DNA from: Candidatus Saccharimonadota bacterium
GTDB lineage: Bacteria; Patescibacteriota; Saccharimonadia; Saccharimonadales; Saccharimonadaceae
DNA: 32,000 nt
NCBI GenBank assembly: GCA_002421785.1
Contig: DIRZ01000001.1
Coordinates: 30,001-62,000 of the forward strand
Direction: 5' to 3'
This document shows positions 9,005 through 31,946 of the stretch, piece by piece. Numbering within the stretch: the stretch's first letter is position 1; each line of letters starts with the position of its first letter. The position numbers and the translations under genes are program-made. The notes below the pieces were generated by a model. It searched no databases and was not told where the DNA came from. It was given only the letters and a program-made list of their open reading frames with translations.

Positions 9005-9160
9005 ATGGCCAACAAGGATGACTACGAACGTGCGGCAAATGCCGTGCAGTCCGGCAACCCGACACGCGATCAGCGCGAGCTGAACGACAAGATGGCGAAG
9101 CAGTCGGGCAGCGCCGGAAACGACGCTCGCGCCGCCCAGAAGGGCGAAAAGAAGTGGTAG
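9005..9160 (+). CDS. Small hydrophilic protein (51 aa), GC3-rich
   Basis: Below the 60-aa track cutoff. AAGGAAGG, a 5-nt spacer, ATG 9005, TAG 9158-9160. Sequence: MANKDDYERAANAVQSGNPTRDQRELNDKMAKQSGSAGNDARAAQKGEKKW. Confidence 0.5.
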   Translation: MANKDDYERAANAVQSGNPTRDQRELNDKMAKQSGSAGNDARAAQKGEKKW

Positions 9161-9270
9161 TCGAGTAGTAGCACGTGGGGATGGATGAAAGAAGTCACCG
9201 GCCTGCAAAGCCGGAGAGCCTGGTGCAATACCGGACCCCACTCCAACACACGCGGCATAGCCGCACCCCA

Positions 9271-9303
9271 CCCGGGCGCAATGCGTCCGGGCTTTTCACA
9301 TTT
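9271..9303 (+). terminator. Rho-independent terminator
   Basis: 9-bp stem CCCGGGCGC/GCGTCCGGG (one G-U pair), loop AAT, then CTTTTCACATTT. Confidence 0.6.
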
Positions 9304-9304
9304 A

Positions 9305-9313
9305 TGAGATAAT
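9305..9313 (+). promoter_or_regulatory. Extended -10 element TGaGATAAT, 6 nt upstream of ATG 9320
   Basis: tTGaGATAATgtattaATG read directly. Confidence 0.4.
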
Positions 9314-9319
9314 GTATTA

Positions 9320-29017: not shown

Positions 29018-29030
29018 CATATACCATCCA

Positions 29031-29081
29031 AATAAAAAGGCCCGGAGGCCCCAGTGCGTAAACGCACCAGGAGCTCCGGGC
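29031..29081 (-). terminator. Rho-independent terminator of the vWA/AAA+ operon
   Basis: Minus strand GCCCGGAG...CTCCGGGC with an inner GTGCG/CGCAC stem, followed by CTTTTTATTT. Confidence 0.7.
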
Positions 29082-29089
29082 TTGTCGTG

Positions 29090-30664
29090 TCAGTACCTCC
29101 AGTCCATGTAGGATTCCCCTGGGTAGAGGCCCTCGGTCGCACCCTTCACATTCGAACCATCGGCGTCTGCCGTCAATTCGTAGTGAGTGGTGCTCAGGCT
29201 CTTCAGCCCTTTATTACCGGGGTAGCCGACAATCACCGTGTGAAGTGTCACATCTTCGCCAATGGCGTCGTATACTTCTTCACGAGTGATCGTGTCATCA
29301 CCGTCGGTAATGAGCAGAATCTCGGCTGCCTGCCCCCGACGCGCGCGACTGCGCACATCTGAAGCCGCTTCCTTGATGGCGGTGTAAATGATTGTGCCAC
29401 CGCCCAGATCGTTGCTCTGGTTGAACAGCTCCTTGATGAGCGAGCGACGCTCTGCAGGAGTGGTAGCAGCAGTCAAGCGGCCCACCGCAACGGCAAACTG
29501 GCGGTACAAGTACTGCGAGTCGTCGTCCAGGTGAGCGCCCATCACTACCGAAGCAAGGGCAATCGCCAGGCAGATGGGCGTTCCGTCCATACTACGCGAC
29601 ACATCGACCACCAGCTCCAGCAGTTGAGCCTGCTGTTCGTCGGTGACCTCGATCTGCTCAGTCCATTCCTGGACCTTGGGCTCTTCGAATTCCCGCCACA
29701 CTTTCCGCTTCTGCAGCGTAGGCAGGCCGGGAACTTCCTCGGCGAATACCCGCCGGCGCAAACGCCCAGTCGCAAAGCGATGGCCAAGCACGTGGCGAGG
29801 CAACGCCATGTCGCGACGCGACATCTGACTCAGCTCACCGGTTCGGCGAACCGGAAGGGTATCGGGGTCATCAGTCGGGTAGGGCACAAAGATGCGACCG
29901 TTGGGCGCCTTCGGACCAGGCATCTCCACCTCCACCATTTTCTTGACCGTCTCGATCGTCACCTTACGGCGAACGATAGGAACGGTCTTAGTGGGAGTGT
30001 GCTTGCCCTTGCCACGAAGGTTCGTGATATTGAACACGGGGATGTCCAGTTTGTTGATCTGGTGAATCATCCGCGCCACCACGTCAGGGTCGACAGTCAA
30101 GTTACCTTGACCGCCCAGGCCGCGACCAGCACTCGTTAGCTTCAGGACCGCCCTCAGTTGGGCGTCGTTCAGCTTCGGCTTGCCGGTCTTTGGGGTCACA
30201 TCTTCATGCGTCTGCATGTCGATGATCTTACCCTGGCGATTAGTCGAATCTTCCCAGGTGGTTTCGGCGACCTTGCGGTCATCGAATGATCCCACCTGAG
30301 TGCCATCTTCCTGGAGCACGACGTACCGACCGTTGTTGTCCGGCTCGGGAGTAACATCCTGACCGGTTTCCCGGTCGATGATGCGTCCTTCCTGGCCCGT
30401 CTGCTCCTGCCACTGCTTGTGGGCACCAGCAAGCGTGTCGTTTTCGGCAACCTGCTTGCCCTTGCTGTTCTGCACTTCGTAGCGCGGCTGACTGGGCTGC
30501 GGCATGCTCTTGGGCGCGTTGGGAGTCGGCGGCGGAGTGGGACGCTCCTGAGTGGAACGCCACAGCAGCCGCCACCACTGCTTGATGCGGTCGAGAACGG
30601 AAAGCCTTGTCGGGTCGCTCGGACCCGACAAGGCACCGCCACGACCGACCGTGTCGTCGGTCAC
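29090..30664 (-). CDS. vWA (MIDAS) domain protein with a Pro-rich linker and tandem N-terminal repeats
   Basis: GTG start 7 nt after the AAA+ stop. MIDAS elements 'VVDVSRSMDG' (DxSxS), 'GGGT' and 'LLITDGDD'. Confidence 0.85.
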   Translation of the reverse strand: MTDDTVGRGGALSGPSDPTRLSVLDRIKQWWRLLWRSTQERPTPPPTPNAPKSMPQPSQPRYEVQNSKGKQVAENDTLAGAHKQWQEQTGQEGRIIDRETGQDVTPEPDNNGRYVVLQEDGTQVGSFDDRKVAETTWEDSTNRQGKIIDMQTHEDVTPKTGKPKLNDAQLRAVLKLTSAGRGLGGQGNLTVDPDVVARMIHQINKLDIPVFNITNLRGKGKHTPTKTVPIVRRKVTIETVKKMVEVEMPGPKAPNGRIFVPYPTDDPDTLPVRRTGELSQMSRRDMALPRHVLGHRFATGRLRRRVFAEEVPGLPTLQKRKVWREFEEPKVQEWTEQIEVTDEQQAQLLELVVDVSRSMDGTPICLAIALASVVMGAHLDDDSQYLYRQFAVAVGRLTAATTPAERRSLIKELFNQSNDLGGGTIIYTAIKEAASDVRSRARRGQAAEILLITDGDDTITREEVYDAIGEDVTLHTVIVGYPGNKGLKSLSTTHYELTADADGSNVKGATEGLYPGESYMDWRY

Positions 30665-30671
30665 GTATTAC

Positions 30672-31946
30672 TCACCACCCCTTCAGGAGATCGAAACCGA
30701 TGACCGGTGTCGAAAGCTTCTTGATGTCCAGTTCGATCTGGCTGACCGCCAGGTCCAGGGCCATGTGCCTAGCGCCACGGAGGGCAGCCTTGATCTGCTG
30801 GGCCGTCAGAGACGACGCAGCGACCATCGTGCCGCCCACCATCAGCTGGGCACTGGTCGTCTGGCTGCGCTCGGCAGTCAGTTGAGCGACCATGTCAGCC
30901 AGCTTGCCGAGCTCCTCCAGAAGGTGAAGCCGGCGACCGGTCATGCCATCCAGCAAATCACTGCAAACTTGCGCCCACAGCACTTCGTCGCCGGACTCGT
31001 CACCGATGGTGAGGAGTCCGTACATCAGCGCCTTCTGATCGACAACATGCACCTCGTTCCGCCCGTGAAGGACGGCCGAAGCGCGGCTGAAGTCGAACAG
31101 CTTGCCGAGAGTACGCGGCGTCACCTCGGGTACGCCGAGCTCCATGTCAAGGGGCTCTTCGGCGATATCCGCGTTCTTCGCGTGCCAGGCGGCACGAGCG
31201 GCGACCAAACGGCGACGCTGAAACTCGCTGACAAGCAGGACGTGCAGCAGGCGCATACCCGGGCTCACCACGATGCCGCCGTCAGCCTCGGACGCCATGA
31301 CGCGGTCCGAAAGCTGCCTGAGGCCGTCGTAGGGAAGTACGGGCAGAGACAAGCGCTTACCCGAATAGTCGAGGTAAGTACCACTGGCACGCAGGCTGTC
31401 ACCCAGGCCATCAATACCGCGCAGGTATGCCTTGCACATGAAGCGGTCAAGAACCGCCTGTAGAGCTGGCGTCATACGCATGTAGTTGCTGGTCGCGATG
31501 GCGGTGTGGAGCGGAGCCGGGACGATACCCATGCCCATGGTCTTGAACTCACGCTCATTGAGCACGTTGTTCACGCCACGCAGCACGTAGTCCGACCCGT
31601 CCATGAACTCGTCGAGAAAGGCGAAAACCGCCTCTACGATGCCACCCTCGAGGTTGTACACCTCGCGGCCGGACTTCATGAGCTCGTCGGCGATGATGTT
31701 GCCGAACATTTCCTCACGAGTTGTCTCCTTGGTGATCTGGAGCGAGAACGTGAGGGCACTCTCGTCGAACATCCCGAAGATGCTCGTGCTCATCAGGCTC
31801 TTGGCACGGCCGGGGCCGCTGAACCAGAACACGTGCTCACGAGCGAGCAGGGCGAACAGAACCTGAGTGAGGATCTGTTCGTTGCTGGGGAAGTTCTTCC
31901 CCAGCACGTAGAAGTTCTCACGCAGTTGCCCAGCGTATGTCATCAT
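30672..31946 (-). CDS. MoxR/RavA-like AAA+ ATPase
   Basis: 'LFALLAREHVFWFSGPGRAKSL' (MoxR-type Walker A with AK), Walker B 'FAFLDEF', sensor-1 'IATSNY', 'VLDRF'. AAGGAGAA SD before ATG 31946. Confidence 0.85.
   Translation of the reverse strand: MMTYAGQLRENFYVLGKNFPSNEQILTQVLFALLAREHVFWFSGPGRAKSLMSTSIFGMFDESALTFSLQITKETTREEMFGNIIADELMKSGREVYNLEGGIVEAVFAFLDEFMDGSDYVLRGVNNVLNEREFKTMGMGIVPAPLHTAIATSNYMRMTPALQAVLDRFMCKAYLRGIDGLGDSLRASGTYLDYSGKRLSLPVLPYDGLRQLSDRVMASEADGGIVVSPGMRLLHVLLVSEFQRRRLVAARAAWHAKNADIAEEPLDMELGVPEVTPRTLGKLFDFSRASAVLHGRNEVHVVDQKALMYGLLTIGDESGDEVLWAQVCSDLLDGMTGRRLHLLEELGKLADMVAQLTAERSQTTSAQLMVGGTMVAASSLTAQQIKAALRGARHMALDLAVSQIELDIKKLSTPVIGFDLLKGW

Follow-up and report, generated by a model that had tools for sequence, protein, structure and literature searches.

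The genes in a 32,000-nt stretch of DNA from a Candidatus Saccharimonadota bacterium (assembly GCA_002421785.1, contig DIRZ01000001.1, positions 30,001 to 62,000; hereafter the window) fall into two compositional classes, i.e. a conserved backbone with mixed third codon positions and a set of intergenic units, including an adjacent MoxR ATPase/von Willebrand factor A (VWA) gene pair, whose third positions are strongly enriched in G and C. An earlier reading of this DNA, the original prediction, held that these units had been acquired repeatedly from a high-GC donor, probably among the Actinobacteria that serve as hosts to such organisms. Our data show that the mosaic in the G+C content of third codon positions (GC3) is real, that the GC3-rich class is clade-restricted with a slot content that turns over between species, and that at least two of its families are old residents of their slots, where they have kept a high GC3 regardless of the genomic background. 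The units are probably not host imports, and we see about an even chance that they represent a resident, recombining and flexible gene class kept GC-rich by a unit-specific force.

The window has a G+C content of 53 % and was extended by 8.5 kb to the left and 9.9 kb to the right within the same 200-kb metagenomic contig, and position-specific GC values were computed for the 52 genes of window and flanks. Their median GC3 was 0.575. The 43 backbone genes, including enolase, XFP, ackA, UvrD, Dus, the atp operon, ABC-F, SmpB, two GT4 genes, pyrH and a sortase, ranged from 0.44 to 0.70, in agreement with the mixed third positions described before, while the high set lay at 0.79–0.93 (Table 1). 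The description of third positions as almost all G or C holds for the ORFs starting at 9005, 23691, 24210 and 28457 (0.81–0.93) but was overstated for the VWA and MoxR genes, and the ORF at 12044-12346, previously called intermediate, lies within the backbone spread and is thus no outlier. Since GC1 and GC2 of the high-GC3 ORFs are normal for coding sequence, the reading frames are real. The same DNA was found in ten independent assemblies (ENA, JGI and eight Logan) at 99.9–100 % identity, and an assembly chimera is therefore ruled out as the source of the mosaic. When SmpB was used as the query against 185,579 species genomes, the window species was absent among the representatives and the best matches were Candidatus Saccharibacteria/Saccharimonadales assemblies at 62–82 % identity, which identifies the source organism as a Saccharibacterium, as had been supposed.

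All 52 proteins were compared by tblastn with 56 Saccharibacteria loci. Backbone genes were present in 20–56 of these, whereas the high-GC3 genes were each detected in L015 alone, a close relative with ~92 % nucleotide identity, save for one weak match to the gene at 23691; the units are therefore lineage-restricted, as predicted, the other 55 loci sharing the backbone. The 166-aa product of 28457-28957 (hyp166) is 96 % identical in L015, which also harbours an extra unit (3554-4020 of that locus) consisting of a promoter, a Shine-Dalgarno (SD) sequence, a 97-aa lipoprotein ORF with a GC3 of 0.87 and a terminator. This unit lies between the abhydrolase and GT4a genes, in a slot that measures 7 nt in the window (25894-25900), with no target duplication evident. 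The restriction to L015 and the extra unit found there indicate that the high-GC3 genes are accessory and that the slots turn over. Across the 56 loci, none of 546 widely shared genes exceeded the local core median GC3 by more than 0.15, vs 60 of 378 lineage-restricted ORFs, some of those in low-GC loci being spurious.

The picture at syntenic slots was mixed. While the units are absent from about 55 more distant species, the MoxR-VWA pair and/or the family of the 116-aa protein encoded at 23691-24041 (hyp116) occupy the same slots in L015, L098, L177, L102 and L017. In L177, the whole backbone order is kept at 60–84 % amino-acid identity, with MoxR (GC3 0.89) and VWA (0.76) in place, a remote hyp116 homologue (hhalign E 7e-5; GC3 0.98) between SmpB and ABC-F, and further GC3-rich genes (0.79–0.98) in its slots, including small ones between pyrH and Exo_endo_phos. 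A hyp116 homologue with 33 % identity and a GC3 of 0.81 sits in the same slot of L017, and the eight contigs of this family that were read (L006-L011, L015, L172-L175) all carry it there. Two further observations on slot content concern genes of other kinds and larger blocks. The hyp166 slot of L177 holds a K+-channel-like gene with normal GC3 instead, and the pyrH/Exo_endo_phos interval of L177/L178 contains six genes, two of which are coiled-coil paralogues of 480 aa whose GC3 is likewise normal. Multi-gene GC3-rich blocks (0.74–0.89) were seen in L098 (4173-8898) and L017 (8547-12865), encoding a solute-binding protein (SBP)-VWA lipoprotein, a Band7-like lipoprotein and small orphans; lineages share these blocks patchily.

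MoxR belongs to a tight family with 49–98 % identity, the next relatives reaching no more than 35 %. Its orthologues in 10 further lineages (50–96 % identity) have a GC3 of 0.74–0.93 in local backgrounds of 0.39–0.66. The MoxR-VWA pair is 50–60 % identical to that of the window in L177, L098, L102, L103, L096, L100, L105 and L104, and 75 % identical in L176. The neighbourhood of pyrH, Exo_endo_phos, the GT4 pair and SmpB is common to L177, L098, L100, L102 and L103, whereas L096 has other neighbours, and L105, L104 and L176 are short contigs without a backbone marker. VWA has an intermediate GC3 in every lineage, lower than MoxR but exceeding the background. The profiles of five lineages all show a uniform GC3 within each gene and a step where MoxR and VWA meet. 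More generally, GC3-rich families are patchy across distant lineages, with a high GC3 each time.

The locus 23691-24449 is a sharply bounded hypervariable mosaic. In three strains with an ABC-F fragment 97 % identical to that of the window, the hyp116 alleles are only 47–54 % identical. Nucleotide identity is 96–100 % in the promoter, at both ends of this gene (~155 nt at the 5' end and ~18 nt at the 3' end) and in its 3' untranslated region (UTR), and the protein is conserved over its first ~52 and final ~6 residues, whereas the ~180 nt in between (23842-24020) show 30–50 % nucleotide identity between strains, with indels. A second variable block at ~24226-24315, in the neighbouring unit, comes in two allele types and one mosaic/recombinant allele. 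Overall, at least three allele types plus mosaics were seen among L015, L172, L173 and L175, the types of the 23691 and 24210 genes not strictly co-varying. Between the window (24569-32000) and L015, synonymous divergence (dS) changes abruptly from gene to adjacent gene, i.e. 0.03 (hyp166), 0.08 (GT4b), 1.15 (abhydrolase) and 1.39 (pyrH), a mosaic that is typical of frequent homologous recombination. A diversity-generating retroelement target at 23842-24020 was considered and rejected, given that the region has no repeat in 8500-32000, that the alleles carry indels at 30–50 % identity and that the called genes include no reverse transcriptase domain.

The two classes also differ in their apparent mode of expression. 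All eight first genes of the high-GC3 set in window and flanks have a -10 box 33–98 nt upstream and an AAGGAG-type SD, whereas in 15 of the 26 first genes of the backbone a TAnnnT box precedes the start codon by 6–12 nt and an SD is missing (e.g. at 21637-21671, 24540-24568 and 27182-27251), so that these genes look leaderless (0/8 vs 15/26, p = 0.0045). With four relatives added (including L177, L096 and L100), where 25 of 51 backbone first genes are leaderless-like, the contrast is 1/17 vs 40/77 (p = 3e-4). This suggests that leaderless mRNA is the default in this Saccharibacterium. The first 50 nt past the stop codon are GC-richer in the high class (0.66 vs 0.46, p = 0.003), while the 5' intergenic DNA of the units is as AT-rich as elsewhere (GC 0.35–0.41) and the flanking core genes show no GC3 rise at the ends adjoining units; thus, the GC-rich zone runs from the start codon of a unit to its terminator. 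Membrane or signal segments are predicted for 56 % of high-GC3 vs 34 % of core genes (p = 0.006). The literature searched contained no report of leaderless genes or of GC3-rich accessory genes in Saccharibacteria.

At the level of single elements, the promoter, SD and terminator strings are present as originally listed, and the units are self-contained in intergenic slots. The recurrence of the -10 string TATAATAG was also seen (3 copies vs 0.48 expected), the minus-strand copy lying at 27189-27196 and not at 27191-27198. As for the promoters having been called native, the -35 and -10 boxes are indeed of native type, whereas the leader and SD are unlike the backbone's usual arrangement.

Under the resident-class explanation, the first class is the conserved backbone (atp operon, SmpB, ABC-F, GT4 pair, pyrH and further genes), mostly leaderless-looking and with a GC3 of ~0.45–0.70, and the second comprises self-contained units at a few fixed intergenic slots, with an ORF GC3 of 0.79–0.93, a consensus sigma-70 promoter, an AT-rich leader of 30–60 nt, a strong SD, a GC-rich 3' flank and mostly a hairpin terminator. 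The products of the latter, i.e. the MoxR AAA+/VWA pair and small orphans that are mostly membrane-anchored or acidic, may be flexible envelope or conflict genes of Saccharibacteria. Through homologous recombination in conserved sequence, strains would gain, lose, duplicate and exchange the units, natural transformation being the likely route of exchange, and a sustained unit-specific pressure would act on the coding part and the 3' end of the transcript, not on promoter and leader. We infer that the high GC3 is not a fading trace of recent host import.

A first candidate for the force behind it is selection that favours GC-rich, i.e. structured and long-lived, transcripts in the SD-led class; this fits a GC-rich zone bounded by start codon and terminator, but not the MoxR/VWA step. 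The second is GC-biased gene conversion at recombining loci, which fits the recombining 23691 locus, but neither the sharp edges nor the step within the MoxR operon. It is tempting to go further and to speculate on two regimes, i.e. a leaderless core of moderate GC3 and a leadered, SD-dependent, GC3-saturated envelope/conflict set whose silent-site composition is kept over very long times by mRNA selection or localised conversion, with the 23691/24210 pair as a polymorphic recognition module towards hosts, kin or phages; we regard this extended version as possible at best and offer it tentatively.

Several points weigh against the resident-class explanation. Each candidate force has a problem: gene conversion anchored in the core flanks predicts a GC3 rise at the ends of the flanking genes, and conversion tracts spilling into these genes were rejected as none was seen, whereas selection across the transcript alone gives no account of why MoxR exceeds VWA in one operon. 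The codon usage of the class presumably also resembles that of an actinobacterium with 60–65 % GC. The leaderless default is read from sequence only. The data span ~50 kb of this genome and ~20 kb per relative, and gene calls in the survey of related loci were crude greedy ORFs. The homologue databases carry almost no taxonomy labels, and the case for a distribution in Saccharibacteria only therefore depends on a dozen or so contigs and their gene contexts. Finally, EF-Tu, ribosomal proteins, GroES, CspA and HU were sought in the fetched loci and none was there, so that translational selection was tested only indirectly.

It is unlikely, in our view, that each unit was separately acquired from a high-GC donor such as an actinobacterial host, kept under a native promoter and not yet ameliorated, although many features of the units point that way: a GC3 of 0.8–0.93 with an overall codon pattern like that of bacteria with 60–68 % GC (presumably including Actinobacteria), the restricted phyletic distribution with presence/absence polymorphism, the sharp unit boundaries, the GC-rich 3' flanks past the stop codon, the SD-led architecture unlike that of the backbone and a tRNA-like remnant beside the first unit. 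In addition, other Saccharibacteria genes have been proposed to come from the hosts (PMC8386444, PMC8764695). Codon usage alone is no means of telling a donor signature apart from GC pressure, and the direction of the differences that separate the window from L015 (GC-to-AT or AT-to-GC) can be read only with an outgroup.

Evidence against such an origin comes, first, from the homologues. The donor test was based on MoxR, hyp116 and hyp166, for which neither the protein sets (5.8 or 1.84 billion) nor the plasmid, phage and viral-contig collections yielded a close homologue outside Saccharibacteria. Their close homologues lie in Saccharibacteria-type DNA wherever the flanks are informative, or form a tiny unnamed family: hyp116 has 9 homologues in 5.8 billion proteins, and 1.84 billion representatives gave 10 matches to hyp166, seven of them similar in size, none in either set with a source name. 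The 12 contigs with close MoxR homologues that were read have mostly Saccharibacteria-type neighbours (pyrH, Exo_endo_phos, GT4 pair, abhydrolase, SmpB, pilin), the short contigs L104 and L176 having no diagnostic neighbour, and a metagenome scan with the MoxR alignment added just four more close loci. By tblastn, MoxR matched plasmids (72,556) and phage records (50,697) at no more than 35 % identity, and nothing close was found when 2.9 million viral contigs were scanned with the MoxR alignment, hyp166 and hyp116. Integrase, transposase or other mobility genes and flanking repeats were not found at the units, but a marginal tRNA-like element, a possible target site, lies at 9175-9242.

The second line of evidence is the age of the signal. 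In the model of Lawrence and Ochman, compositionally atypical acquired genes ameliorate towards their new background. At MoxR-orthologue distances silent sites are saturated, and an imported GC3 signature should therefore have decayed; instead, the MoxR-VWA pair and the hyp116 family are syntenic across these lineages, and their old orthologues keep a high GC3 in any background, which is the opposite of amelioration. Third, the amino-acid composition is unlike that of high-GC genomes. The high-GC3 proteins have a Gly-Ala-Arg-Pro content (GARP) of 0.22–0.29 and a GC2 of 0.35–0.44, both backbone-like, as have the MoxR orthologues (GARP 0.22–0.28, GC2 0.35–0.42), and 24 other GC3-rich Saccharibacteria genes equal the backbone (GARP 0.27; Phe-Tyr-Met-Ile-Asn-Lys content, FYMINK, 0.23), whereas control genes with a GC3 of 0.6–0.9 from truly high-GC genomes reach a GARP of 0.31–0.35. 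Fourth, the pattern is general, in that a GC3 excess over the local core was seen across the 56 loci among lineage-restricted ORFs and in none of the widely shared genes, and GC3-rich families recur in distant lineages. Repeated acquisition from a high-GC donor is thus not supported, even if an unsampled donor of this kind may lie behind the units.

Translational selection is likewise not favoured as the driver of GC3, and we find it improbable that the class simply comprises the most highly expressed genes, with GC-ending codons as the translationally optimal ones. Consensus promoters and strong SDs would fit high expression, as would a gene-specific GC3 kept across lineages with MoxR above VWA, the retention of CGT, GGT and ACT, and the GC3 of 0.81 in the SD-led acyl carrier protein gene of L098. 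However, the effective number of codons (Nc) in the class is only 3–8 below the expectation from GC3, which is no more than in backbone genes of low expression, whereas enolase, XFP and atpA lie 13–15 below it at a GC3 of ~0.5–0.6. Energy-metabolism and pilin genes use backbone codons, and their deviations (CCA up, CCC down) are opposite in the high class, where G-ending and C-ending codons are both increased. Moreover, GC-richness runs into the 3' flanks, and hyp91 has a perfect promoter, yet normal GC3.

Least likely of all is a GC-rich mobile pool of Saccharibacteria (plasmid, phage or conjugative element with its own replication/repair bias) that re-seeds the slots: GC3-rich families are indeed shared patchily (a membrane protein in L016/L019/L043/L031, the SBP-VWA protein in L017/L098 and the Band7-like lipoprotein in L031/L098/L103), the GC3 level is absolute and not relative, and the MoxR pair of L096 adjoins a gene resembling a type IV secretion system coupling protein, but the plasmid, phage and viral searches and the lack of mobility genes or repeats reported above speak against it, and the MoxR protein has diverged to an extent comparable with backbone proteins of medium conservation, which fits vertical descent.

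Compared with known systems, the resident units resemble acquired genes or 'genomic islets' in their atypical third positions, their narrow distribution, their position between core genes and their presence/absence in close relatives. Most acquired genes are AT-richer than their host, however, whereas the units deviate towards GC, with native-like amino acids, no donor found, no mobility genes and no decay in old orthologues. GC-biased gene conversion, or selection for GC at silent sites, has reportedly been described in bacteria by Lassalle et al. in 2015 and Raghavan et al. in 2012, and the silent-site GC without a matching amino-acid shift in a clearly recombining genome is similar; in contrast, the effect here amounts to +0.2 to +0.45 in GC3 and is confined to single transcription units with sharp edges. 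To our knowledge, the size and sharp confinement of this effect go far beyond anything described.

Pherotype, bacteriocin and polymorphic toxin/immunity loci have conserved ends and a swapped variable core. The locus 23691-24449 is alike in its conserved promoter, N-terminal part and 3' UTR around an unalignable core, in its allele types and mosaics, and in having a variable gene for a small membrane protein directly downstream of 23691-24041. Unlike in such loci, domains for toxicity, leader cleavage or immunity are not recognisable in either gene, the surroundings lack genes for transport or secretion, and the allele types of the two genes do not strictly co-vary. Leaderless and SD-led gene classes are known in mycobacteria and other Actinobacteria (PMC3898074, PMC4633059). 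Many first genes of the window are similar in having a -10 box right before the start and no SD, next to a second, leadered set, but here the SD-led first genes largely belong to the GC3-rich, lineage-restricted set, and leaderless status is predicted.

The adjacent MoxR and VWA genes, in this order and with intact Walker A/B and metal ion-dependent adhesion site (MIDAS) motifs, place the pair in the MoxR-VWA kind, which includes RavA-ViaA-type and bpMoxR ternary systems. MoxR matched Pfam bpMoxR (PF20030, 2.8e-22) and NCBIfam RavA (7e-16), and the VWA protein matched Pfam VWA_CoxE (7e-9). The pair has no PADLOC match and, unlike the MoxR-vWA-beta-propeller ternary systems, no third beta-propeller gene beside it; its neighbours are pyrH and the gene of the 166-aa membrane protein, and an RCC1/ricin propeller gene lies 8 kb off in a different transcription unit. 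It forms a tight subfamily confined to Saccharibacteria in the contexts read, the next relatives being at no more than 35 % identity. The promoter of MoxR is sited beyond the window end, and a terminator-like hairpin lies past the VWA gene at 29052-29037. The N-terminal third of the VWA protein carries a GKIIDxxTGxDVTPEPDNNGRYVV-like motif twice before the VWA domain, a duplication also visible in orthologues.

When an episymbiont of high-GC hosts has genes of high GC3, it is easy to read them as stolen from the host, a reading that sometimes serves to guess hosts. Since this reading fails its own tests here, composition alone is no basis for claiming host-derived transfer in Saccharibacteria. 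If the resident-class alternative is true, the units would be a clean natural case of gene-specific, long-term upkeep of silent-site GC, an open problem in bacterial genome evolution. The combination of leader, SD and high GC3 would then mark a fast-turning, probably surface-exposed and mostly unannotated gene set, and there may be a split between leaderless and SD-led translation in a bacterium of the candidate phyla radiation.

Table 1. Units, ORFs and adjoining features in and around the window (aa, amino acids; P, binomial P vs p = 0.57)
Feature	Position (strand)	GC3	P	Description
Unit 1	8931..9160 (+)			Promoter-like TTGACA-N17-TAAAGT 8931-8959; SD AAGGAAGG 8992-8999
Unit 1 ORF	9005-9160	0.81	3e-4	51 aa, highly charged
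tRNA-like element	9175..9242 (+)			Just 3' of unit 1; anticodon GCA; odd D loop, non-canonical T loop
SD-led leadered ORF	12044..12437 (-); ORF 12044-12346	0.66	0.035	100 aa, three hydrophobic stretches (by eye); promoter TTGACG-N17-TGnTATAAT 12437-12409
Unit 2	23629..24143 (+)			Consensus promoter TTGACA-N17-TGnTATAAT 23629-23657; SD GAAGGAG 23680-23686
Unit 2 ORF (hyp116)	23691-24041	0.93	2e-18	116 aa, acidic
Unit 2 3' end	24042-24134			Conserved GC-rich 3' UTR 24042-24118; hairpin terminator 24119-24134, then T-run
Unit 3	24143..24449 (+)			Promoter-like TTTACG-N17-TGnTATTAT 24143-24171; SD GGGAGG 24196-24201
Unit 3 ORF	24210-24449	0.82	1e-6	79 aa, single-pass membrane protein
Unit 4	28396..29016 (+)			-10 box TATAAT(AG) at 28396; SD AAGGAGG 28443-28449
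Unit 4 ORF (hyp166)	28457-28957	0.86	3e-16	GTG start; 166 aa; N-terminal membrane helices (two hydrophobic stretches by eye), then beta-rich C-terminal domain
Unit 4 terminator	28969-29006			15-bp stem plus T-run
VWA protein	29037..30664 (-); GC3 for 29090-30664	0.71	4e-11	524 aa; MIDAS DVSRS...TDG; second gene of MoxR operon, 7 nt downstream of MoxR
MoxR AAA+ ATPase	30672..31958 (-); GC3 for 30672-31946	0.79	7e-21	424 aa; Walker A GPGRAKS, Walker B FLDEF; SD AAGGAG 31958-31953
ORF outside window	-5228..-4932	0.90		
ORF outside window	32918-33313	0.88		
ORF outside window	33475-33867	0.82		

The small high-GC3 ORFs have no family in Pfam, NCBIfam or PADLOC, and the products of several show one to three hydrophobic stretches (by eye). 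AlphaFold models of hyp116 and hyp166 had pLDDT values of 52.7 and 58.1, respectively, both too poor for a fold search. The proteins hyp131 and hyp130 are tandem paralogues that have a C-terminal motif in common with the extra lipoprotein unit of L015, a motif that hyp166 perhaps also carries. The 51-aa protein of unit 1 has no Pfam or NCBIfam match and was not found by tblastn in the 56 related loci, only four of which cover its slot. The adjacent tRNA-like element scored 32.7 bits against Rfam RF00005 (gathering score 29), while ARAGORN makes no call; it may be a degenerate tRNA (tRNA-Cys) or an old integration-site remnant.

Among the neighbouring genes, the listed long SmpB ORF (24341-25045) is over-extended, the true start being at 24569 according to gene callers and the Pfam match, just after the -10-like TGTTATACT. 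A 291-aa protein with a weak match to CDCA (cadmium carbonic anhydrase repeat) is encoded at 10419-11294 (-), and two small ORFs of 55 and 67 aa lie inside or beside the atp operon at 11320-11487 (-) and 13840-14043 (-); all three have normal GC3 and were not found by tblastn in related loci, few of which reach here. The RCC1/ricin gene at 19016-21223 contains three direct 77-nt repeats at 19596-19915, 68–100 % identical and spaced by ~120 nt, which are presumably RCC1 blade repeats of the encoded 735-aa RCC1 plus ricin-lectin protein.

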